DNA of 64,000 bases from Pseudobdellovibrionaceae bacterium (GCA_020635055.1 JACKAN010000015.1:6235-70234), one strand, 5' to 3'; positions 14,062-57,790 are shown, numbered from the stretch's first letter. The notes: a model not told the origin generated them from the sequence alone. A program made the numbers and translations.

Positions 14062-15042
14062 TTAATCAAACTTGTTAAGCTTTGACGGACTGGGAATATC
14101 TTGAAAATTGCGTCCGGTAACGCGAAGCGTATATGTGTCTAGTCCATTTGCGCTGAGTTTAAAGTTGTCTAAAAAATTAATAAAAAGTCGTAAGTCTTTG
14201 TTTTCAGAGGACTTACTTATTATTTGTACTTTTAAATCAAAGGCTCCAGGGCGGGGCACTAAACCTGTTGGCGATTGTTCAATTTGTAATCCAATACGGC
14301 CTTTGAGTCTTACAAAAAGTGGGTCCTTTAAACTCCCTAATTCAAATTGCTCAATAATAAGGTCGCCGCCGACAAGTCTTCCTTTCACTGATAATTTTTC
14401 AAAATTCTTTTCATCAAAAGGGATTTCACCAAAGGGAGTGGGTAAGCTGGTCGAGGGCAAATTAAGGGCTTTTGTGGAAATTGACAATTCACCATCGGGT
14501 TGTTCATTAAATTGTGGGTCGATGTCAGCAGTTAAATTAAAATCAGCACGCCCCTTTAGCTCGAGGGGCAGTTTAACAAAGTTTTTAAGTTGGGAGAGTT
14601 CAATGTTTTCTCCTTCGAGATCGACATTTTGCATAAGCACTTTTTCACTGGTTTTATTTCCAGACTTAACTGCTAATTGTATATTGCCATCCATTAATCC
14701 TTCTATTTTAGAAACAAAGCCGGGTTTGAATTTTAATAAGCTTATTAATGAAGGGGATATAGAAAGGGCCTTAACTTCTATCGTTGGCAAGTTTTGTAAC
14801 TCAAGTTTTACATCCTTCATATCCAATCCTATGGCTGGAAAGAGAGAAAGATTTAAATCTTCAAAAGTTACAAACACTTGATTGTTAGTCGCTTGTGCAA
14901 TTTTTTCGGTAACTAGGTCACTCAAGTCTTCATAGGGGAAAAGTAAGAATAAGAAAAAAATGGTTGATAATATAATGAAGAGAATTTTCTTTTTGTGAAA
15001 CTTGAAGATATTAATTATGAATTGTGCTATTTTTTGCAACAT
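14062..15042 (-). CDS. gspN: type II secretion system protein GspN (by position and topology)
   Basis: Last gene of the gsp cluster. Single N-terminal TM helix plus a periplasmic domain. Size and position fit GspN, but there are no strong motifs. Confidence 0.6.
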   Translation of the reverse strand: MLQKIAQFIINIFKFHKKKILFIILSTIFFLFLLFPYEDLSDLVTEKIAQATNNQVFVTFEDLNLSLFPAIGLDMKDVKLELQNLPTIEVKALSISPSLISLLKFKPGFVSKIEGLMDGNIQLAVKSGNKTSEKVLMQNVDLEGENIELSQLKNFVKLPLELKGRADFNLTADIDPQFNEQPDGELSISTKALNLPSTSLPTPFGEIPFDEKNFEKLSVKGRLVGGDLIIEQFELGSLKDPLFVRLKGRIGLQIEQSPTGLVPRPGAFDLKVQIISKSSENKDLRLFINFLDNFKLSANGLDTYTLRVTGRNFQDIPSPSKLNKFD

Positions 15043-15720
15043 TTACTTTCTCTGAAACTTTCTTTTTGGTTTCTTATTAGAATTATCTTCGCCATCATTG
15101 GCCTCAGAATCTGGCAAATAGAATTTACTCAAACGGTACTCTGTATTAAAATACCCGGCCTTTTCTTTGTCGGCAGCTATATTAAGACCTGTCATTTTTA
15201 AGTCATTAAAATTTTTAACTAAATCACTGCCAATTTGTAAGATTTGATCGAGATTTAACTTCTTCAATTTTAAAATGAATACCTCTTCTTGAACCGGTGG
15301 GCGTGCTAGAGAACTTTTTGTTTCAGATGAAAGCTCTACGCCAACAATTTGATCGCCCATTAAATTAAAATTATTAAGTGAGCTGGAAAGACGGCTTTTT
15401 AAAAGTTCCAGATTTCCCTTCTGTGTGTACAAAGCTCTTGAGTTGTCAGCTTTTCCCACCCTTAGTAATTCACGAATAGTAGAGCGATAGGACGTATATT
15501 TTTCTTGATACACTTTGGCAGATTGAAAATAACCAAAGGGGATATAGATTACTATTAATATAAACAACAGTAAAAAAGAAGCAATTATAGCCTTTTGAGA
15601 GGTGGAAGGTAATGTTTCGAAGCGTTCTCGAATTGAATTAAAAGTGGGATCGTCTAAGATTCTATTTCTTAGTCTTTCCCACTGTTCTAATAATTGATCT
15701 TTTAAATCATCTAAATTCAA
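15043..15720 (-). CDS. gspM: type II secretion system protein GspM-like
   Basis: Bitopic protein (TM at AIIASFLLLFILIVIYIPFGY) abutting gspL and gspN with no gap. Confidence 0.55.
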   Translation of the reverse strand: MNLDDLKDQLLEQWERLRNRILDDPTFNSIRERFETLPSTSQKAIIASFLLLFILIVIYIPFGYFQSAKVYQEKYTSYRSTIRELLRVGKADNSRALYTQKGNLELLKSRLSSSLNNFNLMGDQIVGVELSSETKSSLARPPVQEEVFILKLKKLNLDQILQIGSDLVKNFNDLKMTGLNIAADKEKAGYFNTEYRLSKFYLPDSEANDGEDNSNKKPKRKFQRK

Positions 15721-15721
15721 A

Positions 15722-17365
15722 TCAATTTTCCTCTCTACGTTGAATCTTCATATCAAAGGCAAAAGCCACCCATCCCGGTTGTGCTTTGATGCTGGCTGGA
15801 GATTTTTTTACTTTTTTTCCAATAGCAATACTTTCTAAAGATTTTTCTAGTATGCTTAATGTATTTGGATCTTTGACTTCCCCTTCTAGCTTTAAGGCTT
15901 CATTTTCTAGTTGGAAATTTTTAATATTTAAATTGATTATTTTTTTTGAGGGTGTTTTTTGCGACACTAATGTGAGTATGTCTAGTGCTGAATTAATGAA
16001 TTGAAGGTTTTCAGTCATTTTAATATCTTTTTGTATTTTTTTTTGCTGATTAATATACTCATTTATTTTTTTAACGCTGACTTTGGTTCTTTTTATCTCT
16101 AAAATTTGTTCGCCATGATCGCGCAAGGCTTCTTCGGCCTTGTCAGACATACTTAAAGTAAAACTCTCGCGAACCATTCCGTAGACTAGAAAAAATATAA
16201 AAGTTGCAGCAGCAAGGCTTAAAGTGTGAGACCATTTATTTAAGTAAAGTTTAAAAGTCTGGCTTTCTTTTTTATACTCATCAACTCTTAAATTAATTGC
16301 AGGACTTTTTGGTTTTTTAAGGCCCTCAATGGCCAACCCAATGGCGGTTCCGGCAATAGGACCTTCAGCCGTTGAAATATTACCGGTCACTTCTTGCAAA
16401 GTGGACAGAACATCTATTTTTTTAAATGGAATTTCCGTCTTTTGTGTCAAATAGGCATTTAAGTTAACAAGCTGACTTAAACCACCGGTAATAGTGCCCT
16501 TAACAAAATTTAAGTTGTATAGACTTTTTAGTTCAAGAAGAGTGAGTTTTAACTGATTGGTTAGCTTGTCGATTTCACTTTTAAGCGCATCGGAACTTTT
16601 AATCTCATCTTGTGTAGCGACATCAGGATTGATGATTAATAAATCGCTCTTTTCAATTTCGCGAATGGCTTCAGTTATGTGTATGCTTTTTAAATTTGTT
16701 AGAGCTTTCGCTAAATCAATTCCACCCCAGTCAAAGTCACGGATTTCGACCACTAAACCTTTTCTGAGTACTACTAAATTGCTAACTTGATGACCGAGAT
16801 TAAGAAGGATCTCTGCGGGTTGCACAATATCAGAATTCTCTGAAATTTCATTACTGGGTGGAGCCTCCGACCAGGAAGTAAAGAGATTTGCCAGAGCTAA
16901 ATTATTTACACTTATAATATCAAGGGGGAAATTACAGTCTTCACTTAACTGGATTCTATTTTCAATAATTTTTTTGGGGCAAGCAAGAGCTAAAACTTCT
17001 GTCTGTGGTCCCAAGTAGGCAATGACTTTAGCACTAAAAATTATATCCTCTTGGGCTAGAGGGATCTCATCTTCCAATTCAAAGGGTATACTTTTTAGTA
17101 TTTTATGTCTTTCTTTAAATGGGAAAAGTAACTTGCGTACAGTCAGTTGACTGGTTGCAATTCCTAAAATGTATTTAGTATTAGAGGGATCATACTCTTG
17201 GGATAAATTTCTTAGTGCATCTAGGATTTCAATTTCTTTATCTTTATTAGGGTCTATACTTAATGGAATTTTAAGAAAGCGATTGAGTTTAAAACCCCTG
17301 TTAGTTGATTCGATTTCAACGACTTTGATACTATAGCTACCAATATCTATTCCTAAGCTGACCAT
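15722..17365 (-). CDS. gspL: type II secretion system protein GspL (actin-like/PilM-like N-domain)
   Basis: N-terminus SLGIDIGSYSIKVVEIE (actin-like ATPase fold as in GspL/PilM), a central TM (LSLAAATFIFFLVYGMV) and a periplasmic C-domain. Confidence 0.7.
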   Translation of the reverse strand: MVSLGIDIGSYSIKVVEIESTNRGFKLNRFLKIPLSIDPNKDKEIEILDALRNLSQEYDPSNTKYILGIATSQLTVRKLLFPFKERHKILKSIPFELEDEIPLAQEDIIFSAKVIAYLGPQTEVLALACPKKIIENRIQLSEDCNFPLDIISVNNLALANLFTSWSEAPPSNEISENSDIVQPAEILLNLGHQVSNLVVLRKGLVVEIRDFDWGGIDLAKALTNLKSIHITEAIREIEKSDLLIINPDVATQDEIKSSDALKSEIDKLTNQLKLTLLELKSLYNLNFVKGTITGGLSQLVNLNAYLTQKTEIPFKKIDVLSTLQEVTGNISTAEGPIAGTAIGLAIEGLKKPKSPAINLRVDEYKKESQTFKLYLNKWSHTLSLAAATFIFFLVYGMVRESFTLSMSDKAEEALRDHGEQILEIKRTKVSVKKINEYINQQKKIQKDIKMTENLQFINSALDILTLVSQKTPSKKIINLNIKNFQLENEALKLEGEVKDPNTLSILEKSLESIAIGKKVKKSPASIKAQPGWVAFAFDMKIQRREEN

Positions 17366-17417
17366 AGAGTAGAATTACCTCACACCTTTATAATTAGTGC
17401 AAGGTAAGACCCTCGCA

Positions 17418-17450
17418 GATCCCAGCGTGCGAATTTCCCGCACTGGGCTC
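17418..17450 (-). ncRNA. group II intron domain V (catalytic hairpin)
   Basis: Minus strand reads GAGCCCAGUGCGG-GAAA-UUCGCACGCUGGGAUC. It has the AGC triad, a GAAA tetraloop and a 2-nt bulge on the 3' strand, 22 nt after the RT stop codon. Confidence 0.7.
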
Positions 17451-17471
17451 CTCAAAATCAGATTCAGTTTA

Positions 17472-18854
17472 TCAGTAAACATAGTTACTCCCAAGTTGTT
17501 TGAGCTTTAACGATTCCCATGGTTCCACTAAAGGAAAGTTTCTGATTCTTTCTTTGAATCCATCCCAAGAGTAGGACCTCTTCTGACTTCTCCGGTTTAA
17601 CCATTTAAACAATGATTGAATGGCCTTCCGATAGAAGTAGTGAAGTTTGAGGTTGTTCATTGCATAGCCATAGTAATTGAAGTGTCCCACAATCTTTGAT
17701 TTCGCAAGTTTCCAGATGGTTGACAGTTTGGTTCTGTTTCTAATATTCTTGATCCAGACATCCCACTCACGAAAAGCACTTACCAGCTTTTCTTTCTGAG
17801 TTTTTACTTTCAACATCTTCTTCTTTTGCTGTTTACCCCAATAAAAGGTAAATCCTAGGAAGTTAAAGCTATTGTGCTTATCCTTTCCTAGAATCAGAGT
17901 GCGGGTTTTGTCTTCATTTAGCTTAAGCCCAAATTTTCCTACACGGAGTGCTAAATCCTGTAGAAATCTTATGGAATCATCTTCTTTTTTGAAAAAGAAG
18001 ACTGCATCATCAGCATATCTCACGATGACATTGTTGCAGGAGGCGTAGTTTTCTAGAAACCACTGATCCAGAACTTCGTTAAGATAGATATTTGCGAGTA
18101 TCGGACTCATTATGGATCCTTGTGGTGTGCCGATCTCACTGGGGATATTTTCACCATGTGAGATAAGGCCACCTTTCATGAATCGTCCAATAAGGCCTTT
18201 AAACTTATTGTCAGAGATTTTTCGACCCAAAATTTTCATCAATTTTCGATGAGATATTGTGTTGAAGAAATTTGAGAAGTCTATTTCTACCACATTTTTC
18301 CGCTGATTCTTGAATAAAGAATAGTAGCAGGCTTCAATTGCCTTATGCGCAGACCTTCCGGGTCTGTACCCGAAGGAATTACGTATAAATAGCGGCTCAT
18401 AGATTTGTGTTAGAATTTTTCCAACCACCCAATCTACCAGTTTGTCTTCAAAGCATGTGATGGCAATGGGCCTTGTTTTGCCATTGGCCTTAGGAATAAG
18501 AACTTCTCTTTTTGGTTTTGGCTTATAGGATCCGTTTTTAACTTTGACTTCTAAATTAAAAAGATTTTCCTCTAAGTTTTTACCATACTCAGACTTACTG
18601 ATACCATCCACACCCAAGGCCTTTGATCCATCTAAAGCTTTGAATGCCTCTTTGAAAGAGTCCACATGAAAATGTGTTAGGAGGTTTTCGAACACAAAAT
18701 GTTTACTTTGTGCTTTTAGACCTATTCTTGCCCAACGACTTTGCGACAGGTCTGTGAGACCTGTCGCGATCTGCTTCGAATGCACCCCTCTGTAGAGGCT
18801 CGAAGTGCTTGTTGCAAGATCCTGATCTTGTCGACCCCTTTGCTCCTTTGGCAT
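17472..18854 (-). CDS. ltrA: group II intron reverse transcriptase/maturase
   Basis: RT blocks 0-7 (GVDGISK, RPIAITCFEDKLV, FGYRPGRSAH, IDFSNFFNTISH, GTPQGSIMSPILANIYL, VRYADDAVFFF, LKLNEDKT) plus a maturase X domain. No HNH endonuclease domain. Confidence 0.92.
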   Translation of the reverse strand: MPKEQRGRQDQDLATSTSSLYRGVHSKQIATGLTDLSQSRWARIGLKAQSKHFVFENLLTHFHVDSFKEAFKALDGSKALGVDGISKSEYGKNLEENLFNLEVKVKNGSYKPKPKREVLIPKANGKTRPIAITCFEDKLVDWVVGKILTQIYEPLFIRNSFGYRPGRSAHKAIEACYYSLFKNQRKNVVEIDFSNFFNTISHRKLMKILGRKISDNKFKGLIGRFMKGGLISHGENIPSEIGTPQGSIMSPILANIYLNEVLDQWFLENYASCNNVIVRYADDAVFFFKKEDDSIRFLQDLALRVGKFGLKLNEDKTRTLILGKDKHNSFNFLGFTFYWGKQQKKKMLKVKTQKEKLVSAFREWDVWIKNIRNRTKLSTIWKLAKSKIVGHFNYYGYAMNNLKLHYFYRKAIQSLFKWLNRRSQKRSYSWDGFKERIRNFPLVEPWESLKLKQLGSNYVY

Positions 18855-19268
18855 TACCCAACCTCAACGCTAATATGAGTCGATCTGACTTCTGTAAGAA
18901 GCTTCACACTTGTCTTAAGGTTGTCCCTCTTGAGTTCGTATTTTAACATCCGTTTCCATCTCCTTACAGATCTCCCAAGTTCCGACGTTTACTGTATCTA
19001 CATGCCATGCTCTTGGACCCCGGAAAGGCCAGAGTCAATTTTGACTCTGATATTGCCTTCGCTTCTTCATACCCACTCGGCCCTTTCACATCACCATTAT
19101 CTCTCGGGGCTCTATCACTTAAAGGTGATATTCCACCTAATGGCCTGCAGACTCTCTGTCTACACTTCACGAGCTTCGTTGCCTAACTCGCGCAAGACTC
19201 GATACAAGGCCTCTGTCCCCAGAGCTACCTTGGAAGGACTTGACGACTATTGTTAACCGTCGCACCTT

Positions 19269-29093: not shown

Positions 29094-30040
29094 TTAATCA
29101 ATGTTATAGTCGAAAACCTCTTCTCGTCCTTCTCTATTTACACTTAGAGTTAGGTGATCGGAACTTTTTAAACTTTGATACATTTCCATAGCTTGTGTCG
29201 GGCTGGTTACGGGTTCATTATTTACACCCTTAATCACGTCACCAGGTTGAAATCCCAATTTAGAAAGATGCTGTCGGGTTGAATGGACACAAATCGAAAG
29301 CCATCGATGGTTCCGCCTGAGCCAGGAACAATATTGGGTACCATGCGAGCTTGTTTAAAGTGCTAGAGATCACTGGTGTATTTTTCCAAATCGTCTTTAG
29401 AAATGCAAGCGGAAATTCTCCTTCTTTTTGACTTCATCACCAGTGATGGTTGTGGGTTTTGCGCGCGGGGCTTTTAAGCCAAAATTAATTTGATTGTCCC
29501 CGGAATTTCAATGTATTCTAAACGTCGTGTGGCCAAGTTGCGGAAGATGACTTTGCGCCTTTCAATTTTAGTGATCTCGGCCAGGGATTCTATGCGCTCA
29601 CCAACTCGAAAGGATTCAGATTCATTACCACTGGATTTGTTAATGGTAGCAATGGACTTGTTGGGGTCGAGATGAACAATTGTGCCTAAAAGTTTAAGTG
29701 GTAATTTAGATAAAACGGGAGGTCCATCTAGGTTTTCCCCCTTTTTTTCACCATCAGTAAGCGGTGGTGGAATAAGGCCATCATTATTAAAAATATTTCG
29801 ATCTGTAATTTTTCGTAAATCGCTACTGGAAATGAGTTTTTGTCTCATCATTCTTTTTGGCTTTAAAGGCGGTGCTTTCTTTGGCAACATTTGTGGACGA
29901 AAGGTGAGGATATTTAAATCGGCAATAGAGTATCCAACTAAAGCACACAAAATATAAATATAAAGCCACTCAAAAGGTGGTCTTCCTGTAGGGCTTATGA
30001 TGTTTTTGAACCATTGGTTACTCGATGTCTTTAGACCCAT
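29094..30040 (-). pseudogene. gspC: type II secretion protein GspC; N-terminal 188 aa intact, PDZ domain broken by indels and a TAG
   Basis: ORF 29474-30040 holds the TM helix plus HR domain. 29094-29473 encodes a PDZ (..MVPNIVPGSGGTIDGFRFVSIQPDSIF / SKLGFQPGDVIKGVNNEPVTSPTQAMEMY..) spread over three frames with one in-frame stop. Confidence 0.75.
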
Positions 30041-30271: not shown

Positions 30272-31042
30272 TTGCTTTTTAGAAAGCATGAGTCAAAAAA
30301 GACTCTAGGGGAAAATGGGGAGGGGAATATGCGAGATGTGGTTATATTTAATGGTCTAAATGCACTAGACTTTCATGAGATTAGAGACAGTGTGATTCGA
30401 ATACCAGAAGTGAGTATTCGTGTGCGGGAAGCTCAGGGAGTATGGGACGCCTTGGGGGAGTCTAATTTTAGTTTTTTTAATTTTCTGGTTTCAGAAGATG
30501 CCACTTACTTGAGTAACATAAAAATTAAAAGTTTGGTGACATCCATTGTTCAAATTGGTTTGTATGATAGATATGTTCGAAGATTTGGCCGTCCAGAATA
30601 TATTGTGGGGAGTGTCAATGGAGATTCACCATTGCAAGTATGTATTGGGGAGACCACTTTTGAAGATATGATTCTGGATAGTCCAGTGGCAAAACCAGTG
30701 GCATCAGTTACTGAAATTTTTAGTCAGAGCAGTTCCACAGTACTTTCAGGAATCTCACTGGCTGAAACCGGAGTGTTTCAACATTTAGAAAACACAGGGA
30801 AATACCAACGTGTTTCTTCAACTAAACAGGACTTAGGAAAAATTATTTCTCATCTTATCGAGGACTGTCATGTTAAAAAATTAATTAATGTAGGTCCTGG
30901 CATTACGGCTTTGGAGCCTTTGCAAGAAAATTTAGCATTAAAAGATATTCAAATTGTAGAATCTATTGATGCTGATCCCATGTTGAATTGGTTTTGGATG
31001 GAGTTGAAGAAATCTTCCGAACAGGTTTCAATGGCCCAATAA
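30272..31042 (+). CDS. hypothetical protein (start possibly ATG at 30329)
   Basis: 256-aa ORF divergent from gspC. No confident family. Weak resemblance to the acyltransferase fold, lacking the GHSxG nucleophile. Confidence 0.5.
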   Translation: MLFRKHESKKTLGENGEGNMRDVVIFNGLNALDFHEIRDSVIRIPEVSIRVREAQGVWDALGESNFSFFNFLVSEDATYLSNIKIKSLVTSIVQIGLYDRYVRRFGRPEYIVGSVNGDSPLQVCIGETTFEDMILDSPVAKPVASVTEIFSQSSSTVLSGISLAETGVFQHLENTGKYQRVSSTKQDLGKIISHLIEDCHVKKLINVGPGITALEPLQENLALKDIQIVESIDADPMLNWFWMELKKSSEQVSMAQ

Positions 31043-31069: not shown

Positions 31070-31768
31070 TTGTCAGCAGATGAGTTCAATAAAAAAAATA
31101 AAGTTTTAGTAAAGTCCCGTCTATATTTAGTCGGGACTTTGTTTTCAAAGCGACCTCACGCTCATAGTTTTTTGATAAGTTTCTCAATGGTGTCCTTGTG
31201 TTTTGTTGTTTCCTCTGTGGCCTGGAAAAATAAAAATTGGATGGAAGCACTTTCGGCCTCGCGCTATAGCGTCTTTGAAGAGCTAAAAATATGGCAGTTG
31301 CTAACGACTATTTTTATACATGCTGATGGACTTCATGTTTTGTCTAATAGTTTTATGTTGTTTATTTTTGGCTACTTTGTTTTTGGTTACTTTGGTGGGA
31401 AAGTCTTTCCCCTGTACTCCTTGATTGGAGCTGGATTAACAAATGCATTTGCGCTTTGGACTTACCCTCCACATGTGAAGCTTGTGGGCGCTTCTGGTTG
31501 GGTTTATTTTTTAGCGGGATATTGGCTTTGCATGTATTTATTTATAGAAAGACAGAGAACATTATGGGCAAGAACTTTAAGAATTTTCGGTGTAGGATTA
31601 GTGGTGTTGTTTCCTTCGAGTTTTGAAATGCAAGTGAGTTATCGTGTTCACGGAATAGGACTTTTTTTAGGAATATTGATGGGCTTTGTTTATTATTATA
31701 TTCATCGCAAACAATTTATAAATTACGAAAAATACTCTTTGGAAACTGATAGTGAATCCAATGTTTAA
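31070..31768 (+). CDS. rhomboid-family intramembrane serine protease
   Basis: Six or more TM helices with H..H..N (IHADGLHVLSNSF), the GASGWVY catalytic Ser motif and the catalytic His in HGIGLFLG. Confidence 0.85.
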   Translation: MSADEFNKKNKVLVKSRLYLVGTLFSKRPHAHSFLISFSMVSLCFVVSSVAWKNKNWMEALSASRYSVFEELKIWQLLTTIFIHADGLHVLSNSFMLFIFGYFVFGYFGGKVFPLYSLIGAGLTNAFALWTYPPHVKLVGASGWVYFLAGYWLCMYLFIERQRTLWARTLRIFGVGLVVLFPSSFEMQVSYRVHGIGLFLGILMGFVYYYIHRKQFINYEKYSLETDSESNV

Positions 31769-31910: not shown

Positions 31911-31952
31911 AGATCTAGATCCAGATCCAGTTCCAGTTCCAGTTCCAGTTCT
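31911..31952. repeat. hexanucleotide microsatellite AG(A/T)TC(C/T) x7
   Basis: agatct agatcc agatcc agttcc agttcc agttcc agttct read directly, 170-210 nt upstream of the fibre gene. Confidence 0.85.
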
Positions 31953-32121: not shown

Positions 32122-35106
32122 ATGAACAGGATGTCAGTAGTTAACCTTAATAAAAAAATACTTGCTCAAGTAAGAAGTTACTTGCAACTGCGATATTGTT
32201 CTAGCATTTCCAAGCTTTCCAACAAGATGGTTTTTTCGATGCCTATTGCCTTTGTCATTTCGTTCTTTTTACTTTCGAATGTTCATGCACAGTCACCACA
32301 GGGTCTGACATTGCAAGGAACAATTCTCAATGCCAGTGATCTTCCCCAAGAGGGAGCTTCAGTAAGCTTTGTCATTCAAATTTTATCTTCAGATGGTAAT
32401 GCCTGCTTACTTTACGAAGAGTCCCATGTTTTAAATATGACAGGCTCTCAGGGTGCTTTTTCTTTGATACTGGGCACAGGAACTCGCAGTGGAGTGAATT
32501 ATGAAGACACAAATACTCTAGCTTTAGCTATGGACAACACTTTGGGCGTACAGAGTTCACTTACTTGTGCCGTTGGAAGCACTTACGATCCAGCACCGGG
32601 AGATTCCAGAGATGTATTAATTAGTTTTAACGACGGTTCGGGAGTACAAACTCTAACACAAAATTTATTAGTTCAATCTGTGCCCTATGCTTTCTATACA
32701 GATAACACAGAAAGACTGCAAGGTAAGCTTGCAACAGATTTTATTCAAGTCAATACGGCTACAGCTTCGCTATCGCAAGTAAATATTGAAAATGTATTTT
32801 CCACTACAAATTATCCCAATTTAGTTGATTTACTTTCTGTATCTCCCACAGAGTATGTTCGCACAGGATCAAACGGTTCAGCTTCGATACCACAAATTAC
32901 TGGCAATCCTGGGTCAGGTTTAGCCGCAGGTCAAATATGGTATGACGATGCTGCCAATTTAGTAAAATATTATGATGGCACAATGGTGCAATCACTGTCG
33001 GGTTCTGGTTCTGGAGATTTAGTCTCAACAAATAACTTAAGTGATATTAGTAATGCTGCTACAGCTAGAACTAATCTAGGATTAGCTATTGGTACCAATG
33101 TACAAGCTTTCGATGCACAATTAACAGATGTGGCTGGCTTAGACCCCAGTACAACTTCTGGTTATTTACTTGGCTCGGATGGCACAAATTTAGTTATGCG
33201 CTCACCAGCCAATGCTCGAAGTGATTTAGGTTTAGGAACAGCGGCAACGAGTTCCACTGGAGATTTCTTACAAGTCACAAATAACTTAAGTGATATTAGT
33301 AATGCTGGAACAGCCAGAACTAATTTAGGATTAGCTATTGGTACCAATGTACAAGCTTTCGATGCACAATTAACAGATGTAGCTGGTTTAACCCCTACAG
33401 CAGATAATTTTGTAAGCGGTGATGGTACTAATTTAGTGATGAAAACTCCAGCGCAAGCGCGCACAAGTCTTGGACTTGGTACGGCTGCAACTAGTGCATC
33501 TGGTGATTTTTTACAAGTTACAAATAACTTAAGTGATATCGGTAGTGCCGCAACCGCACGCACTAATTTAGGTTTAGGAACCGCAGCCTTACTTTCTGAA
33601 GATTCAAATAACACATTCGCTAATGGTCAACTTGTTGCTTTTGATAGTGCAACAATGACATGCGCAGCAGGTGAATATTTAACCATTCAAGGACCAGGCC
33701 CCACTTATTCTTACACCTGCGGAACTCCATCCGCGACAGATTCCACAAAATTACCACTAGCCGGTGGCACTATGACTGGTCCTTTGGTGAATAATTCAAA
33801 TTCGGCATCTACGGCCTTAGCGATAACTCAATCCGGAGCAGGGCACGCAGCCACTTTTATGGGAGGCAATGTCGGTATTGGGACTACAACACCTAGTTAT
33901 CCTCTTTCGGTAATTGGTAATACGAATGTTTTAGGTACGTTATCTGCAACCTCAATTACTTCTTCAAACCTTTCTACTTTCAATGGTGGAGTGATTGCAA
34001 CGTTAACAAGTTCCACCTTTCCATATAGTGGTACAAGTGCCTCAATATCAAACGCAGGAACTAGAAAAGTAATGCAAATGAGCATGTCTCCAAATCCTAC
34101 AGCGGACTATACAACGAACTACTATAATGGTGATTTTTTAACTGTAGCAAGTACAGCTAATAATCAAAATTCCGGGAAATATGTAACAATTAATTCAGCA
34201 TCTACTCATACGGGAACAGGTACAGTCCTTGATATGACGGGTGGGGATTTTTCAATTACTAATTCAACGGGGACAATCACCGATGGATTTGGGTTAAAAA
34301 CCTCAATCACAAATTCAGCTACGGTAACCAATGCATACGGTCTCTATGTCGGCAATATTCAGGGAACTAACCGATATTCAATTTATAGCTCGGATAGTAA
34401 TGCTCCCTCTTTCTTCGCAGGCAACATGGGGATAGGCGTTTCTTCTCCGGCAAGACTTTTAAACGTAGCAGGACCTATTCGAGTTAATCCTGCAGCCTTA
34501 CCTGGAACTCCAGGAGCTGGTGATATCGCTATAGACAGTGGAGCAAGTAATGCCCTTAAATATTATAATGGAAGTTCATGGGTTACAGTAGGTTCGGGTA
34601 GTGGAGATTTAGTTTCAACAAATAACTTAAGTGATTTAAGCAATGCTGGAACAGCTAGAACCAATTTAGGATTAGCTATTGGTACCAATGTACAAGCTTT
34701 CGATGCTCAACTTACTGATGTAGCTGGTTTAACACCCACAGCCGATAATTTTGTAAGTGGTGATGGCACTAATTTAGTGATGAAAACTCCTGCTCAAGCG
34801 CGCACGAGTCTTGGACTTGGTACTGCAGCCACCAATGCCACTGGAGATTTCTTACAAGTTACAAATAACTTAAGTGATCTTGGTAGTGCCACAACCGCAC
34901 GCACTAATTTAGGTTTAGGAACAGCAGCCTTACTTTCTGAAGATTCAAATAACACATTCGCTAATGGTCAATTAGTAGCTTTTGATAGTGCAACAATGAC
35001 ATGCGTTGCAGGTGAATATTTAACCATTCAAGGACGAGATATTTTAAAATGTTGTGGATTAGTTATCCAGCGACAACCTTTTCGGTTTTTTTATCTTCTA
35101 CAATAA
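32122..35106 (+). CDS. tail-fibre-like surface fibre protein, N-terminal fragment (native sequence ends at 35035; last 23 codons read into IS256)
   Basis: Signal-like segment (MVFSMPIAFVISFFLLSNVHA) and five NNLSD..ARTNLGL(A/G) repeats, as in phage tail fibres. The tail ..RDILKCCGLVIQRQPFRFFYLLQ is IS-derived. Confidence 0.8.
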   Translation: MNRMSVVNLNKKILAQVRSYLQLRYCSSISKLSNKMVFSMPIAFVISFFLLSNVHAQSPQGLTLQGTILNASDLPQEGASVSFVIQILSSDGNACLLYEESHVLNMTGSQGAFSLILGTGTRSGVNYEDTNTLALAMDNTLGVQSSLTCAVGSTYDPAPGDSRDVLISFNDGSGVQTLTQNLLVQSVPYAFYTDNTERLQGKLATDFIQVNTATASLSQVNIENVFSTTNYPNLVDLLSVSPTEYVRTGSNGSASIPQITGNPGSGLAAGQIWYDDAANLVKYYDGTMVQSLSGSGSGDLVSTNNLSDISNAATARTNLGLAIGTNVQAFDAQLTDVAGLDPSTTSGYLLGSDGTNLVMRSPANARSDLGLGTAATSSTGDFLQVTNNLSDISNAGTARTNLGLAIGTNVQAFDAQLTDVAGLTPTADNFVSGDGTNLVMKTPAQARTSLGLGTAATSASGDFLQVTNNLSDIGSAATARTNLGLGTAALLSEDSNNTFANGQLVAFDSATMTCAAGEYLTIQGPGPTYSYTCGTPSATDSTKLPLAGGTMTGPLVNNSNSASTALAITQSGAGHAATFMGGNVGIGTTTPSYPLSVIGNTNVLGTLSATSITSSNLSTFNGGVIATLTSSTFPYSGTSASISNAGTRKVMQMSMSPNPTADYTTNYYNGDFLTVASTANNQNSGKYVTINSASTHTGTGTVLDMTGGDFSITNSTGTITDGFGLKTSITNSATVTNAYGLYVGNIQGTNRYSIYSSDSNAPSFFAGNMGIGVSSPARLLNVAGPIRVNPAALPGTPGAGDIAIDSGASNALKYYNGSSWVTVGSGSGDLVSTNNLSDLSNAGTARTNLGLAIGTNVQAFDAQLTDVAGLTPTADNFVSGDGTNLVMKTPAQARTSLGLGTAATNATGDFLQVTNNLSDLGSATTARTNLGLGTAALLSEDSNNTFANGQLVAFDSATMTCVAGEYLTIQGRDILKCCGLVIQRQPFRFFYLLQ

Positions 35107-36399
35107 TGCCATCCTTGTAAGCAACCCCATTTAATAGCTTTGTAAACTCTTTAACCCCACATAATCTTAGCCAGTGGCTTTCACATTGTTTTAACAACTT
35201 AAAAGTCATGGCCGTAGCAGAGTTAATACTGCCGGCACCCTTAGTTGATTTTAAACGACTCTTTACTCCAGCAAATGATGACTCTATAGGGTTACTAGTT
35301 CTTATGCTACGCCAGTGTGCTGCTGGGAAATCAAAAAAATTATTTAATTCATTCCAGTTTTTAGTTAAACAAGTAACCATCTTTGGATATTTATTTTCAT
35401 AAGCTTTTGAAAAATTATTTTTTATTTTAGTCGCTGTTTCTTTATCTGGTGCCCGCATCATTTCATGTAACTGTGATTTAATTGCTGGCTGAAGTTTTTT
35501 AGGACACTTATCTAATACATTGGCTATCTTATGTACCCAGCAACGCTGGTGTTTTGTTTTTTTAAATTCTTCTAAACTTTCAAGGGCTGACCAAAATCCT
35601 AAAGCCCCATCTGCTATAGCCAATAGAGGACAGTTTAAACCCCTGGCTATTAAAGACCTTAATACAACTAACCAGGACTCCTTAGACTCCCTGTAACCGG
35701 CTTCTACAGCTAATAATTTCTTTTCACCATCTTGAGTTACACCCATGATTACCAACAAGTTTAAACGCTTGTCTTCTCCGATTCGAATAGATACATTGAC
35801 CCCATCAGCCCAGAGGTAAACAAACTCATCTGTGATTTTACTTTTTTTCCATACCTGATACTCCTCCTCCCAGCGTCTTTTTAATTTACTAATACTTCCT
35901 GCTGAAAGGCCTTGAGAAAAATGATCCTTTAATATTTTATCAAATTTATTTGTTGAAACACCTGATAAGTAAAGTGCGGGAATTAAACTCTCTATTTTGG
36001 GGGACCGTCTTATATAAGCTGGTAATAAATTAGAGGAAAACTTAAAGCCATCACGTTTGTCATTTACTCTAGGGGTCTTGATTTCAATAGCACCAGCAGC
36101 TGTAGTGATTTTCCTAGACTTGCTGCTTCCATTTTTTACTACTAATCGGTGCCCAGAATCATCAATAAGGCTTTGATGATTATTAATATACTCCTCAACT
36201 TCCAGCTGTAAAGCTTGTTGGAGCATCTTTTTGGCCCCTTCTTTAACTACATCATCTAAGTTGATTGATTCGGATTTTTCGGTTACTATTTTTAGCATAG
36301 CAGCTCTCCTTTTGCTCATTTAATGAGCGGTTTTTAGTGAAACCTTAGGTTATGCCGCTATATTTTCTTTTTCAAATCCACAACATTCTGCAATATCTC
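35036..36399 (-). mobile_element. IS256-family insertion sequence (1364 bp) with 9-bp target site duplication
   Basis: 25-nt terminal IRs (35036-35060 and 36375-36399, 22 of 25 identical). TSD TTCAAGGAC at 35027-35035 and 36400-36408. Single transposase ORF. Confidence 0.9.
35063..36319 (-). CDS. IS256-family (Mutator-type) transposase
   Basis: 418 aa with YLWADGV (D), AIADGALG (D) and the QRCWVHKIANVLDK signature, plus NPIES..F (E) typical of IS256/MULE DDE enzymes. Confidence 0.93.
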   Translation of the reverse strand: MSKRRAAMLKIVTEKSESINLDDVVKEGAKKMLQQALQLEVEEYINNHQSLIDDSGHRLVVKNGSSKSRKITTAAGAIEIKTPRVNDKRDGFKFSSNLLPAYIRRSPKIESLIPALYLSGVSTNKFDKILKDHFSQGLSAGSISKLKRRWEEEYQVWKKSKITDEFVYLWADGVNVSIRIGEDKRLNLLVIMGVTQDGEKKLLAVEAGYRESKESWLVVLRSLIARGLNCPLLAIADGALGFWSALESLEEFKKTKHQRCWVHKIANVLDKCPKKLQPAIKSQLHEMMRAPDKETATKIKNNFSKAYENKYPKMVTCLTKNWNELNNFFDFPAAHWRSIRTSNPIESSFAGVKSRLKSTKGAGSINSATAMTFKLLKQCESHWLRLCGVKEFTKLLNGVAYKDGIIVEDKKTEKVVAG

Positions 36400-36485
36400 T
36401 TCAAGGACCAGGCCCCACTTATTCTTACACCTGTGGAACTCCATCCGCGACAGATTCCACAAAATTACCTCTCGCTGGTGGCACT

Positions 36486-38318
36486 ATGACTGGTCCTTTA
36501 GTTAATAACTCAAATTCGGCATCTACGGCCTTAGCGATAACTCAATCCGGAGCAGGATATGGCGCAACAATTGAGGGCGGCAACGTCGGTATAGGCACAT
36601 CCACTCCCTCCTCATTATTAACGATCAAAGCAGCCACTACTGGGGAGCACATGGCAATAAAGAATAGCGCTAATAACTCCGTTTTTACTTTTGGTTCAAC
36701 GGCAGCGGGAAATCATGGTTTGCTTTCGGTGAATACCGGCACAGGGGTTGAATCCGTCACGATGAGAGGAGATCATAACTCGGGAGCCTATATCTTTGTG
36801 GATGCACAAAGAAATAAACCTGATGGAGGAGCGAACGGATATGGCGCCGGTTTGGCAATCAAATCTCCATTTGTGGTGAATCAGGAGAATGGAATATTTT
36901 TTCTCAACGGACCAGTTTTGAGTGATAAAGCGGGAGCAGCAGTGACTTTCTATACCTCAGATATCGGCGACTACGGGCGAGGTGGTCTCAAATTTAAAAC
37001 AACAGCCTCAGGATCTGTGGCAACACGAATGACAATTGATCCAACAGGAAACGTTGGAATTGGAACGGCGGTGCCGACAAGTAAATTACATGTTTTCGAC
37101 GGCATAGCTGCAGCAGGTACTGCTGCTCCCTCTGTCTTGCAAGTCATCGGTGGAACAAATGCTGTCGATGCTCCAGGTGCTAATCCTGCCGGAGGCATTA
37201 TAATTTCATCGGCCAATGGAGGCGGAACCAATTTTAATTTGGGTGGAAACGTCGATATATCAGCTGGGTATGGCGGCAACGGCGGGAATGTAACTCTCTC
37301 CGCAGGAAAGTATCAAGGAGCTCTTGCTACGACTCCAAGCCAACTGACTCTTGGAGGATCTGGATCTGTGACTTCCGGAGCAGCGACTCTTGGATCGGGA
37401 TATACAAATTTTGTCGCAGCAAGCTCTGGCTCACTGAGTTTATTCACTCCGAATGCATATTCTAGCTATGGAAGGGGCGGTAACATTTCAATTATGGCAG
37501 GCAATGGTTCTACAGGGGTATCCGGAGGAGCTTCGGACTTTGGAGGAACAATTAGCATCACGGCAGGAAATGGAGGGGTTCAGCAAAATCTAGCCGGTTC
37601 TAATGTTGTCATTAACCCTGGCGCAGGTGGCGGAACAGGGGCCTCCGGAAATATTATCCTTGGTAATCTTCAAGGCAACGTCGGTGTGGGTACGACCACC
37701 CCTGGTGCGAAGCTGGATGTCACCGACACGAGCACGACAACTAGTGCGATCGTTGTTCCACGCGCAGCAAATTTTACTGGTACTAGTCTTAACGGTATGA
37801 TCCGCTACAACACATCTTCTACATTATTCGAGTTTTATCAAAACGGCACTTGGGTGAACTATACAACTGTATCGGATGGTCGCTTGAAAACAAATGTGAC
37901 CCCAGTGGATCAGGGACTTGAAATTGTGAATCAACTGAACCCAGTATTCTACGATTGGGAACGCAGCAATCCTAAAGCTTCGAGCTTTGAAAATAAACAC
38001 CAAGTGGGTTTTATTGCCCAGGAAGTTGAAGAAGTCTTACCTGAAGTTGTTAATAAAGGCGAGGACGGCTACAGGTCACTCGAGTATGGAAAGATCGTCT
38101 CCGTGGTCGTAGCGGCTGTTAAAGAGCTTTATGCGAAAGTTATGGGGCATGAAGAGAAAATCCAGGCCCAAGACCGTCAAATTGCCTCTAAAGCTGATAA
38201 AACCGAAGTGGATGCGAAGGTTCAGAAGCTTGAATCTGAAAACGAAAAACTAAAACAAGAAAATGATGCAATCAAAGCTCGCCTTGAGAAAATCGAGAAA
38301 GCCCTCAACTCAAAATAA
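36486..38318 (+). CDS. tail-fibre-like surface fibre protein, C-terminal fragment (native reading frame actually resumes at 36409)
   Basis: Gly-rich beta-helix-like repeats, then SDGRLKTNV (37872) plus FIAQEVEEVLPEVV, an S74-type intramolecular chaperone signature, then heptad coiled coil (..KLESENEKLKQENDAIKARLEKIEKAL). Confidence 0.8.
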   Translation: MTGPLVNNSNSASTALAITQSGAGYGATIEGGNVGIGTSTPSSLLTIKAATTGEHMAIKNSANNSVFTFGSTAAGNHGLLSVNTGTGVESVTMRGDHNSGAYIFVDAQRNKPDGGANGYGAGLAIKSPFVVNQENGIFFLNGPVLSDKAGAAVTFYTSDIGDYGRGGLKFKTTASGSVATRMTIDPTGNVGIGTAVPTSKLHVFDGIAAAGTAAPSVLQVIGGTNAVDAPGANPAGGIIISSANGGGTNFNLGGNVDISAGYGGNGGNVTLSAGKYQGALATTPSQLTLGGSGSVTSGAATLGSGYTNFVAASSGSLSLFTPNAYSSYGRGGNISIMAGNGSTGVSGGASDFGGTISITAGNGGVQQNLAGSNVVINPGAGGGTGASGNIILGNLQGNVGVGTTTPGAKLDVTDTSTTTSAIVVPRAANFTGTSLNGMIRYNTSSTLFEFYQNGTWVNYTTVSDGRLKTNVTPVDQGLEIVNQLNPVFYDWERSNPKASSFENKHQVGFIAQEVEEVLPEVVNKGEDGYRSLEYGKIVSVVVAAVKELYAKVMGHEEKIQAQDRQIASKADKTEVDAKVQKLESENEKLKQENDAIKARLEKIEKALNSK

Positions 38319-52951: not shown

Positions 52952-53494
52952 TTAGCCAGTATCCGCCAATGTCTGCCCTAACTCGCTAGAAAAATCTTCC
53001 CAATTAAAACCCACAGCTTGCATACGATTTTTATCGAAATACCTATGAATAGCTTTATAAGCTCTGCCCCAAGTCACCACTCGTGAAAATGGCCGAGCAT
53101 CCCAAAACTGTATAGACTTTCCACAACCTCTTTCGGCCCGCAAAATATGACGAGCAATCAACCCTGTTACCGAACGCAAATAACCGGCCAGCCACCTCCG
53201 ATGCCCAGTTTTTAAAAGAATATGCAAGTGATTGCCAACATTTTCATATCTATAAAGTCGAATACCCCAGCGCTTGGCCTGGGATTTTAAGATGCAATCA
53301 ATGGCCTCACGATTCGCCTTACGCAGAAAACTACGACTGCCTTTAGTGTATTTGGATTTCAGCACCAAGTGCATGGCGTGTTTGGTCGATATAGGTCTTT
53401 TTGTCTTCGGGTTGGAAGCTTTAAGCAAGCTAGCGCCAAAGATCTTTGGACTTCTCATATTAAACAAGGACATTTGAAATTCTTTTTGCACCAT
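52952..53494 (-). CDS. IS200/RAYT-like HUH tyrosine-transposase-family protein
   Basis: ..HAMHLVLKS.. and the HUH motif GNHLHILLK, with a C-terminal ..AIHRYFDKNRMQAVG.. (Y-x3-N helix), as in REP-associated tyrosine transposases. Confidence 0.65.
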   Translation of the reverse strand: MVQKEFQMSLFNMRSPKIFGASLLKASNPKTKRPISTKHAMHLVLKSKYTKGSRSFLRKANREAIDCILKSQAKRWGIRLYRYENVGNHLHILLKTGHRRWLAGYLRSVTGLIARHILRAERGCGKSIQFWDARPFSRVVTWGRAYKAIHRYFDKNRMQAVGFNWEDFSSELGQTLADTG

Positions 53495-55407: not shown

Positions 55408-55845
55408 ATGTCAAAACCTGTTAAATTAAGAATCAAGAATAAACAACACATGGAGGTGTTAAGGATGGACAATACAATATTAAGAAAAAAATTAAATACA
55501 TACAAATCCCCAAAAGGCTCACTTAAAGGTATGAGTCACGAGGTGATTCTTGAGGTACTACAGGCTTGGCAAAACTGGCCCGGCAGTACAGCAGATCTTT
55601 ATAGGGATTTGGGGCTTAGTAAAGGTCAAATGTCTGCTTTGATTCGTGCAGGAAAGAAGCTGGTAAAAAATGGTGCTGTTGTTGAGAGTGAATTTAAAGA
55701 GGTAAAGGTGGAATCAGTGCCTGTATATGATGATAACTGTAACTCCCCTATTACTGTGAAGTGGGACAGGAATAAGGTGATCCGTTTTTCACAAGTGGAT
55801 CAATTAGTGGATTTTTTAAATAAAGTGGAGAAGAAAGCCGCGTGA
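55408..55845 (+). CDS. tnpA: IS66-family accessory protein TnpA (orf1)
   Basis: Small HTH-like protein immediately upstream of, and overlapping (4 nt), the IS66 orf2. The start may be an internal Met (MDNTIL.. at 55465). Confidence 0.65.
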   Translation: MSKPVKLRIKNKQHMEVLRMDNTILRKKLNTYKSPKGSLKGMSHEVILEVLQAWQNWPGSTADLYRDLGLSKGQMSALIRAGKKLVKNGAVVESEFKEVKVESVPVYDDNCNSPITVKWDRNKVIRFSQVDQLVDFLNKVEKKAA

Positions 55846-56246
55846 TTGCCTTTAATCGTACAACAAAGATATATGTAAGTAAGGAGCCCACGGACATGCG
55901 GGCTTCTTACGACACATTATTTAACAAAGCAAAGTCGGTATTAGAAAAGGATCCCTTTTCGGGTCATTTGTTTGTATTTATAAACCGGTTAAGAACGTCG
56001 ATGAAGTGTCTATATTACGACGGCACGGGATTAGTTATAGTGTCCAAGCGTTTAGAGCGCGGCACGTTTTCGAAGATAAATCCATTTTACAAGAAAGAAA
56101 TTGTATTAACTCAGGCGGAGTTTTCATTGTATTTTGAGGGTGCAGATTTAGAGAAAAGATTTATTGATTCCCCGAGTGAAATAAAAAAAAGTTATCAAAA
56201 AAACACATGCCGCAACGGGAGTGCGTTGCAAAATTTAATCGTGTAA
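55842..56246 (+). CDS. tnpB: IS66-family accessory protein TnpB (orf2)
   Basis: ..IYVSKEPTDMRASYDTL...DPFSGHLFVFINRLRTSMKCLYYDGTGLVIVSKRLERGTF.. is the conserved IS66 Orf2 pattern. Confidence 0.9.
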   Translation: MIAFNRTTKIYVSKEPTDMRASYDTLFNKAKSVLEKDPFSGHLFVFINRLRTSMKCLYYDGTGLVIVSKRLERGTFSKINPFYKKEIVLTQAEFSLYFEGADLEKRFIDSPSEIKKSYQKNTCRNGSALQNLIV

Positions 56247-57790
56247 TTTGTAATGCTCGAATGGATCAAAAAGAATTATTTAAACCTATTCCTGTTGATA
56301 AGCTTTCAACATTTTCAAAAGAAGAATTAATAATTTTACTTCGTGGTGAGCAGCAAATAAGACAACAGATTGAAAAAGAAGTTGATCGTCTTCGGGCGTC
56401 GAACAATGAATTGGAGCAAAAGTCATTTTACATAGAAGAGCAGTACATCACGATCAAGAACAAATATTTTGGTAAGAGTTCCGAGAGAGAACCTAGCGAA
56501 AATGATCGTAAAAAGCACCTTAAAAAGAACAAAAAAATGAAGAAGAAAGTTCAGCTTCCGTCGCTTCGCTACCCTGACGCTCCGTTAATAGAGCGAGAAG
56601 TGACATTAGATAACTTACCCAGTTGTAAATGCTGTGGCACAGAGATGAGCGACTCTGGGATGACAGAGAACAGTGAGTTTTTAACAGCGGTACCTCAGCA
56701 ATTTTTTGTCATCCGTCAAAAACGTCATAAGTACAGATGTGGTAAATGTCATGGAGATATAGTGACAGCGCCTTCACCACCAAGAATAAAACCAGGCTCT
56801 AGTTACAGTGATGAGATGATGTTGGATGTAGCCTTAAGTAAGTACTGTGACCTGATCCCAGTAGAGAGGTACTCGAGTATAGCAGGAAGAGCTGGGTTAA
56901 TGGATTTACCGCCGCAGAGTTTAATCGGGACAACTCATAATGTGGCTGATTATGTTGAAGGGGCTTACAGTAAAGTAAAAAAAGAAATCACAATTGAAAA
57001 AGTATTAAATGCCGATGAAACGCCCCACAGGATGTTAGAAGACCACGGAGATAAGAGTTGGTACTTGTGGGGGTTTTCGACAAGGAGAAGCAGTTATTTT
57101 GAGATCCACGACACCCGAAGTGGTGACGTAGCTTCTGAGATTTTAAATAAATCAAAATGTGAATATTTAGTGAGTGATGTATTTAGTGGTTATGCCAAAG
57201 CCGTACGAGTGAGTAACGTTTACCGTAAAGAAAACAAGCTGCCACTATTAAAAAACGTTTATTGCAATGCTCATGCGAGGCGTAAGTTTAAGGAAGCCGC
57301 AGAGAAGTATACAGATGAGGCACAGTATTTTATAGAGGCGTATAAAAAGATCTATCGATTGGAAAAGATAGCCAAAGCTCGTCCCCCAAGTCGGGTTTTA
57401 CGAGTCCGCAGGTTAATGACAAAATTGTTTGAGGAAATGAAGGAAACTGCTATCGAAAATGTAGCTGGCTACTCTAGTAAAAGTAAGATAGCTATTGCAA
57501 TGAAGTACTTCCTTAAAAATTATGAGGGGTTGACGTTATTTATAAAAAATAAAGAATTACCCATAGACAACAACTCACAGGAACGGCAAATGAGGAGTCC
57601 AGTTATTGGTCGAAAAACTTGGTATGGAACTCACTCAAAAAGAGGGGCCAGGACAACAGCCATATTATTTTCCTTAGTAGAGTCTTGTAAACTCAACAAT
57701 GTAAATCCAAGAGAATATTTTAAAAAACTAGTCGAAGATCTCCACAAAGGCAAAGAACCCTATACCCCCAAAGATTACGCTGACTTATAA
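56207..57790 (+). CDS. tnpC: IS66-family DDE transposase TnpC (start likely Met at 56261)
   Basis: Leucine-zipper N-terminus, zinc-finger CKCCG..CGKCHG, and a DDE core (NADETPHRML.., LVSDVFSGY, YCNAHARRKF). Confidence 0.9.
   Translation: MPQRECVAKFNRVICNARMDQKELFKPIPVDKLSTFSKEELIILLRGEQQIRQQIEKEVDRLRASNNELEQKSFYIEEQYITIKNKYFGKSSEREPSENDRKKHLKKNKKMKKKVQLPSLRYPDAPLIEREVTLDNLPSCKCCGTEMSDSGMTENSEFLTAVPQQFFVIRQKRHKYRCGKCHGDIVTAPSPPRIKPGSSYSDEMMLDVALSKYCDLIPVERYSSIAGRAGLMDLPPQSLIGTTHNVADYVEGAYSKVKKEITIEKVLNADETPHRMLEDHGDKSWYLWGFSTRRSSYFEIHDTRSGDVASEILNKSKCEYLVSDVFSGYAKAVRVSNVYRKENKLPLLKNVYCNAHARRKFKEAAEKYTDEAQYFIEAYKKIYRLEKIAKARPPSRVLRVRRLMTKLFEEMKETAIENVAGYSSKSKIAIAMKYFLKNYEGLTLFIKNKELPIDNNSQERQMRSPVIGRKTWYGTHSKRGARTTAILFSLVESCKLNNVNPREYFKKLVEDLHKGKEPYTPKDYADL

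Follow-up and report, generated by a model that had tools for sequence, protein, structure and literature searches.

The closest described systems are the mosaic adhesive trimer (MAT) fibres, the prey-recognition family of Bdellovibrio reported by Caulton et al. (2024, Nat Microbiol; PMC10769870). These fibres are trimers on the surface of the predator, and for one of them binding to Proteus-type glycans has been reported (PMC10769870). Here we analyse a fibre gene at positions 32,122 to 38,318 (plus strand) of a 64,000-nucleotide stretch of DNA, hereafter the window, from Pseudobdellovibrionaceae bacterium (GCA_020635055.1, JACKAN010000015.1:6235-70234). We read this gene as an S74-type member of the MAT family, from an uncultured low-GC bacterium of the Bdellovibrionaceae/Pseudobdellovibrionaceae, that has been hit by an IS256-family element, and we put the probability of this reading at about 0.9.

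B. bacteriovorus HD100 encodes 21 MATs, all of which carry a conserved β-rich N-terminal domain (~130 aa) directly after a signal peptide; 13 end in a Peptidase_S74 (S74) domain with the motif SDxxxK, and one of the family, Bd3182, cleaves itself at the catalytic serine (PMC10769870). The 8 of 21 without S74 (NS74) still form fibres and have dedicated, independently folding tip domains, and the β-helix segments of MATs bear a capping loop, V-G-G/N-pi-x-x-P-x-x-x-L (PMC10769870). Deletions of single MATs were mostly silent (PMC10769870). The words 'transposon', 'pseudogene' and 'type II secretion' are absent from that paper, and our own literature search for Bdellovibrio fibres disrupted by an insertion sequence (IS) found nothing relevant.

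The gene described here resembles the S74 subgroup of MATs (Bd3182) in having a signal-like N-terminus, the N-domain, a repetitive fibre, VG.G..xP...L loops and an S74 domain with SDxxxK, in its mosaic blocks, and in its chromosomal, non-prophage locus in a Bdellovibrio-like organism. It differs from the MATs of HD100, which are typically ~1000 aa, in its length of 1607 aa, partly the result of a 447-codon internal duplication. Moreover, its source is not B. bacteriovorus but an uncultured lineage with ~38% GC, and it is interrupted by an IS. Phage S74 fibres and tailspikes, such as the K1F endosialidase (3GW6) and the T5 L-shaped tail fibre pb1 (4UW8), have the S74 Ser-Lys dyad and helical bundle in common with it, along with a presumed trimeric β-helix logic and shaft repeats. 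However, in place of a virion-attachment N-terminus, the fibre here has a putative export signal and the MAT N-domain anchor, and no phage genes lie nearby.

One fibre gene split by an insertion sequence

The locus contains two long open reading frames (ORFs) on the plus strand, 32122-35106 and 36486-38318, with a 418-aa ORF (35063-36319) on the minus strand between them. These flanking ORFs are the halves of a single fibre gene, interrupted by an IS256-family element of 1364 bp at 35036-36399. The element is bounded by a perfect 9-bp target-site duplication (TSD), TTCAAGGAC, with copies at 35027-35035 and 36400-36408. Excision of the element and one TSD copy leaves 4824 nt, a length divisible by 3 in which the sole stop codon is terminal, corresponding to a protein of 1607 aa. 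The insertion point falls past the first base of codon 972, following Q970 and G971 and within the codon for P972. Thus, the 5' part of the gene (32122-35035, plus strand) holds codons 1-971 and the first base of codon 972, and the 3' part (36409-38318, plus strand) runs from the rest of codon 972 to the stop.

A direct repeat within the gene bears on this join. In the repaired DNA, a block of ~640 nt (33270-33900) is followed by a second copy, ~90% identical and displaced by exactly 1341 nt (447 codons), and the IS sits inside this second copy. The repeat passes the junction without offset; 60-nt windows over the junction are 92-98% identical and show no shift. With the IS still in place, the spacing is 1341 nt for the left arms of the repeat but 2714 nt for the right arms; subtraction of 1373 (IS plus TSD) from the latter gives 1341. 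That the register is kept across the repaired junction confirms the join independently. An IS-free sequence at the site would read ..CCATTCAAGGAC followed directly by CAGGCCCC.., with module-2-specific bases GCGTTGCAGG upstream and ACCTGTGG downstream. The junction peptide, ..EYLTIQGPGPTYSYTCGTPSATD.., is unbroken in the closest intact relative, P0001.

In the public record, the locus appears as two intact proteins. The product of the 5' ORF is identical to GenBank MCB9026870.1 ('hypothetical protein H6625_11165', start at M4, 991 aa) and that of the 3' ORF to MCB9026872.1 ('tail fiber domain-containing protein', 610 aa); both are encoded on a 93,933-bp contig of a Bdellovibrionaceae/Pseudobdellovibrionaceae metagenome-assembled genome (MAG), and the disruption is unflagged. 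This annotation, together with the length of both frames, would fit two genuine separate genes that have a transposase between them by chance. The sequence refutes that view, with a perfect 9-bp TSD around a complete IS, one frame restored by its precise removal, and an internal repeat in exact register over the junction. Furthermore, the 5' ORF runs into the IS up to 35106, such that 23 foreign residues (..EYLTIQG-RDILKCCGLVIQRQPFRFFYLLQ, then a stop) are added to 971 native ones in a product of 994 aa. The 3' ORF starts at an internal ATG (36486) partway through a repeat module, and it lacks both a signal peptide and the N-domain. Given in addition the unbroken junction peptide of P0001, we see next to no chance that the two ORFs are separate genes.

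Another concern is that the interrupted structure arose during assembly, with a copy of the IS placed wrongly into a gene that has repeats, as the source is a MAG and internal repeats of 90% identity could confuse assembly. An assembler, however, does not make a perfect duplication of 9 bp, a length typical of IS256, at both ends of an IS while also allowing in-frame, in-register restoration. Because these features are beyond an assembler, we take the insertion to be genuine in some or all of the population sampled, and an artefact is very improbable.

Members of the IS256 family are typically 1.2-1.5 kb long and generate target duplications of 8-9 bp. The element described here conforms to this pattern, with a single ORF for a Mutator-type DDE transposase, a size of 1364 bp, imperfect inverted repeats and a 9-bp TSD. 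It is oriented antisense to the fibre gene. The inverted repeats span 25 bp (35036-35060 and 36375-36399) and match at 22/25 positions (GAGATATT..AATGTTGTGGATT); the element starts with GAGATATTTTAAAATGTTGTGGATT and ends with the reverse complement of GAGATATTGCAGAATGTTGTGGATT. Its 418-aa transposase, apparently intact, matches Pfam Transposase_mut (1.7e-67, profile positions 12-362 of 379) and NCBIfam transpos_IS256 (5e-86, 288.7 bits versus a cutoff of 150). The perfect TSD and full-length transposase suggest that the insertion is recent. We found no second copy of the IS ends within the window, no match to the left-end 30-mer in the genome contig collection, and no exact copy of the transposase sequence in the protein collection searched. 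A second IS256-family transposase in the window (57796-59037) is only 28% identical to that in the fibre gene.

An earlier note on this DNA, written from the sequence alone, had proposed that the two ORFs are halves of one gene, that removal of a 1364-bp IS256 insertion and one 9-bp TSD copy yields 1607 codons, and that a paralogous internal module confirms the join. Our analysis reproduced each of these points.

Anchor, shaft and tip of the repaired fibre

The N-terminal region carries the signature of the published MAT family. Bdello_MAT_N (NCBIfam NF053851, 'mosaic adhesive trimer family chimeric fiber protein') matches aa 49-211 (32266-32754, plus strand) at 6.8e-39, with 133.3 bits versus a cutoff of 60, and this domain is the presumed cell-proximal anchor. 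An AlphaFold2 (AF2) model of aa 45-220 is β-rich, with a predicted local distance difference test score (pLDDT) of 79.6 and a predicted template modelling score (pTM) of 0.69. The model has no significant fold match in the PDB (best E 0.034, generic Ig-like sandwiches), in agreement with the statement that the MAT N-domain is without a structural homologue there (PMC10769870). A hydrophobic segment, MVFSMPIAFVISFFLLSNVHA (aa 36-56; 32227-32289, plus strand), followed by QSP, ends in VHA directly before the N-domain; by eye, it is a probable Sec signal peptide, with cleavage after VHA and before Q.

Downstream of the anchor lies a shaft built from repeats of phage tail-fibre type. Copy 1 of the shaft repeat region (33028-33900, plus strand) consists of 243-nt tandem units with NNLSD..TARTNLGL and ARxxLGLGTAAT motifs, which give way to a EYLTIQGPGPTYSYTCG..LPLAGGTMTG segment and then to the first capping loop, VGIGTTTPSYPL. 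The left arm of copy 2 (34611-35035, plus strand) is ~90% identical to 33270-33694 and ends at the IS. In the repaired protein, NNLSD..TARTNLGL repeats occur five times (aa 304, 387, 468, 834 and 915) and AR(T/S)(S/D)LGLGTAAT half-repeats three times (aa 365, 446 and 893), together spanning aa 304-932. Many PHROGs tail-fibre families match both halves of the gene, down to 1.5e-30 and 3e-28, and the 5' half has a PDB sequence match to phage short tail fiber gp92 (9ZD7, 8.2e-13).

Five capping-loop motifs of the form [VM]G[IV]G.xxPxxxL, at aa 584, 769, 1031, 1187 and 1396 (range 584-1407), punctuate the protein. The last three, VGIGTSTPSSLL (aa 1031), VGIGTAVPTSKL (aa 1187) and VGVGTTTPGAKL (aa 1396), fall in the tip region (36585-37715, plus strand), where they surround a Gly-rich stretch (24-26% Gly in aa 1201-1400); this region is presumed to be the trimeric β-helix and ligand-binding part. 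Sequence searches of the PDB with the 3' half returned five matches, four of which are Bdellovibrio MAT crystal structures: 8OND (Bd2133, 1.4e-8), 8OML and 8ON4 (Bd1334), and 8OJN/8ONB/8ONC (Bd3182). The segments that align to 8OND and 8OML are those with the capping loops. The fifth match is 6F45, the distal subunit of a T4-type phage long tail fibre.

The tip is followed by the core of the S74 intramolecular chaperone (aa 1460-1519; 37872-38051, plus strand), identified by Pfam PF13884 (1.6e-17, 63.9 bits versus a cutoff of 22). It opens with SDGRLK (aa 1460-1465, from nt 37872), and S303, D304 and K308 of the 450-aa C-terminal construct, which include the Ser-Lys dyad, are invariant in an alignment of 28 relatives. 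By analogy, autocleavage is predicted at Ser1460. The protein terminates in a long α-helix (aa 1531-1606; 38085-38315, plus strand), which corresponds to residues 374-449 of the AF2 model, with pLDDT of 86-96 across the last 40 residues. Heptads with L/I/N at a/d positions appear at its end, and weak matches to coiled-coil families cover aa 1534-1605. This helix would belong to the released chaperone module.

The earlier note had described most of this architecture. Its counts of full and half repeats are exact, and both the S74-type region opening at 37872 and the heptad coiled-coil end stand. As for the Gly-rich β-helix-like region it described, the Gly content holds, and sequence similarity to MAT β-helix crystal structures speaks for the fold, but our own structural model gives it no support.

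Mosaic relatives and a host-owned locus

When the 3' half was used as query in an exhaustive HMMER search, 65,756 relatives were retrieved at E <= 1e-3. Its final ~215 aa proved to be a widely shared cassette, at 60-67% identity, and Bdello_MAT_N was also present in 13/27 relatives sharing the tip/S74 cassette. P0001, a protein of 1780 aa that likewise stems from a Bdellovibrionaceae MAG, shows 92-93% identity in the first ~570 aa but only 36% in the S74 region; beyond ~570 aa it has the same blocks, rearranged. P0007, P0009 and P0012 have different bodies joined to a C-terminal cassette that is 70-74% identical to that of the fibre here. Overall, the S74 cassette of the fibre here shows 62-74% identity to the cassettes of otherwise different MATs. 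This block pattern is the 'tip-swapping' described for the MAT family. The earlier note had called the gene giant; its 1607 codons hold, but the term is relative, since relatives of 2000-4800 aa exist.

Two or more large MATs are encoded on a single JGI contig from a related organism, Ga0502775_0000005 (1.07 Mb); two of these, P0007 (2216 aa) and P0012 (2752 aa), have long internal repeats in common and illustrate how a cassette is shared among fibres. No other MAT paralogue was found within our 64-kb window.

The genomic neighbourhood is that of a bacterial chromosome. Upstream and divergent from the fibre gene lies a complete type II secretion system (T2SS) operon (14062-30040, minus strand), with genes for GspC-like, D (secretin), GspE, GspF, GspG, pseudopilin, GspJ, GspK and PilM_2/GspL-like proteins. 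Between this operon and the fibre gene, on the same strand as the latter, are an ORF of no family (30272-31042) and a rhomboid protease (31070-31768). Downstream are three ORFs without a confident family (one with a weak esterase match), followed by genes for a cytochrome c, a PCC-domain protein, a Mur ligase and a LysR regulator. Further neighbour families include RelA/SpoT and single-stranded DNA-binding protein (SSB). Pfam and PHROGs scans of the neighbour ORFs revealed no phage structural, lysis or integrase genes within ~18 kb either side, as the earlier note had also reported for structural and lysis genes. The relative P0007, on its 1.07-Mb contig, similarly sits between genes for HSP90 and glycyl-tRNA synthetase (GlyRS).

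These data bear on the question of whether the gene could be a prophage remnant, i.e. a degraded phage tail fibre or tailspike. Such an origin would account for the strong PHROGs tail-fibre matches and the PDB matches to the phage fibres 9ZD7 gp92 and 6F45; S74 domains are typical of phage spikes, and the window is rich in mobile elements. However, the N-terminus consists of a Bdellovibrio-specific MAT_N domain after a signal-like segment, and phage fibres have neither. Phage genes are absent within ~18 kb on either side, relatives lie among housekeeping genes, and MAT_N recurs in 13/27 of the tip relatives. On the basis of the N-domain and context, we reject a phage origin as highly improbable. 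The housekeeping and T2SS neighbours, in the absence of phage genes, indicate instead that the MAT fibre gene is host-owned. The earlier note's proposal of a host-owned trimeric adhesin for prey recognition was thus correct in kind.

The adjacency of the T2SS could hint at an outer-membrane export route for MAT fibres, or it may be coincidence; at the one related locus examined (P0007), no T2SS lies near the MAT gene.

Several other features of the window can be recorded here. The rhomboid protease is supported by Pfam Rhomboid (1.1e-11); a rhombosortase match is sub-threshold (29 bits versus a cutoff of 84), and we do not take it as meaningful. The 353-nt intergenic region that precedes the fibre gene contains a hexanucleotide tandem repeat (AGATCC/TCCAGT, ~6 copies) at 31911-31951, ~170 nt before the start of the gene. 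The window contains at least five mobile elements. One is a complete group II intron (17364-19242, minus strand), with Rfam matches RF02005 (D1-D4, 99.7 bits, 19008-19242) and RF00029 (D5-D6, 43.9 bits, 17364-17452) and an RVT_1 reverse transcriptase ORF (17472-18854). It is situated in the T2SS operon, where it is flanked by gspK (19410-20693) and the GspL/PilM-like gene. The 3' end of the intron coincides, to within one or two bases, with the ATG of the latter gene at 17365 (MVSLGIDIGS..), which makes it intergenic though still part of the operon transcript. An IS66-type unit on the plus strand comprises an ORF (55408-55845), TnpB_IS66 (55842-56246) and DDE_Tnp_IS66 (56207-57790), and is directly followed by the second IS256-family transposase ORF (57796-59037, plus strand); these may be nested or adjacent insertions. 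An IS200-like Y1 transposase ORF (Pfam Y1_Tnp, 3.7e-06) occupies 52952-53494 on the minus strand.

Probable consequences of the insertion

Homology with Bd3182 and other MATs allows us to infer how the intact fibre would work. It would be exported by way of the Sec signal peptide, and the conserved β-rich N-terminal domain would anchor it to the surface of the predator. From there, an intertwined trimer would extend through the tail-fibre-like shaft repeats, the shaft being lengthened by the 447-codon duplication, to β-helical tip segments bounded by capping loops, which may bind prey surface glycans. The S74 chaperone and helical bundle would drive trimerisation and then self-cleave at Ser1460, thereby exposing the tip. 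With the IS in codon 972, the end for export and anchoring is cut off from the end that holds the tip and the chaperone. The truncated 5' product would still have the putative signal peptide, the anchor and some of the shaft but lose the tip and its folding chaperone, and the 3' ORF lacks both signal and anchor; hence, the allele is most likely null. Such a null allele would be tolerated through a large, redundant MAT repertoire. The earlier note had called the gene knocked out, which is very likely, though it is something we infer rather than observe.

The alternative is that the gene has not been knocked out. The 994-aa product could form an NS74-like fibre, as it keeps the putative signal peptide, MAT_N and ~750 aa of shaft, and 8/21 HD100 MATs form fibres without S74 (PMC10769870); otherwise, outward transcription from the IS could express the 3' half, and a weak promoter-like site faces outward at 36337-36364. 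Yet NS74 MATs end in dedicated tip domains, whereas the truncated product ends within a repeat, to which 23 random residues are added. The 3' ORF is without an export signal, and the number of promoter-like sites is lower than chance would give (10 found versus 15.4 expected); a terminator scan was also at or below chance. We consider continued function of the interrupted gene improbable, and a null allele remains our preferred reading.

Some of our observations weigh against the overall interpretation of an interrupted S74-type MAT. Modelled as a monomer with AF2, the C-terminal 450 aa gave a poor structure except for the terminal helix (pLDDT 56.7, pTM 0.24), and a Foldseek search of the tip model against the PDB gave nothing at E <= 0.001; its top rows, non-significant and covering only 35-50 residues (MAT crystal structures, 3GW6), were not used as evidence. 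M1, M4 and M36 are all candidate start codons, and the signal peptide is a putative one. NS74 MATs fold without the S74 chaperone (PMC10769870), and the 994-aa product may thus retain some function. The source is a MAG, and the insertion may be in only part of the population. Finally, an IS-free allele was not found in any collection searched. The repaired protein had no relative in the genome contig collection, and a 41-mer across the empty site had no match in the metagenome contig collection, where the 3' half retrieved only distant relatives (<= 62% identity across the S74 cassette). Neither P0001 nor the product of the 3' ORF (P0121) had a contig on record when looked up by exact sequence.

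The repeats flanking the IS also raise the question of whether the insertion could be reversed. The right arms (33695-33900 and 36409-36614) are 85% identical, with longest perfect runs of 47, 35 and 25 nt. A deletion between them would remove exactly 2714 nt, i.e. the IS plus one 447-codon period, and leave an in-frame fibre of 1160 aa with the same anchor and tip on a shorter shaft. It is conceivable, if doubtful, that RecA-type recombination between the repeats purges the IS and that the interrupted gene represents a reversible 'off' state. If so, repeat modules would be a built-in means to vary fibre length and purge insertions in predator adhesin repertoires.

The MAT family has already been published (2024, PMC10769870) and is covered by a curated NCBI model, and hence our results do not amount to new biology; the gene is probably a further, inactivated MAT member. 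These data place MAT prey-recognition fibres in an uncultured low-GC Bdellovibrio-like lineage, where they follow the mosaic pattern of the family, in that the anchor is conserved, the shaft modules are shuffled and the S74 tip cassette can be exchanged. They also indicate that IS activity can remove single members of the repertoire, in keeping with its reported redundancy. In counts of MAT genes, or comparisons of MAT repertoires with prey range, MCB9026870.1 and MCB9026872.1 should be read as one disrupted gene.

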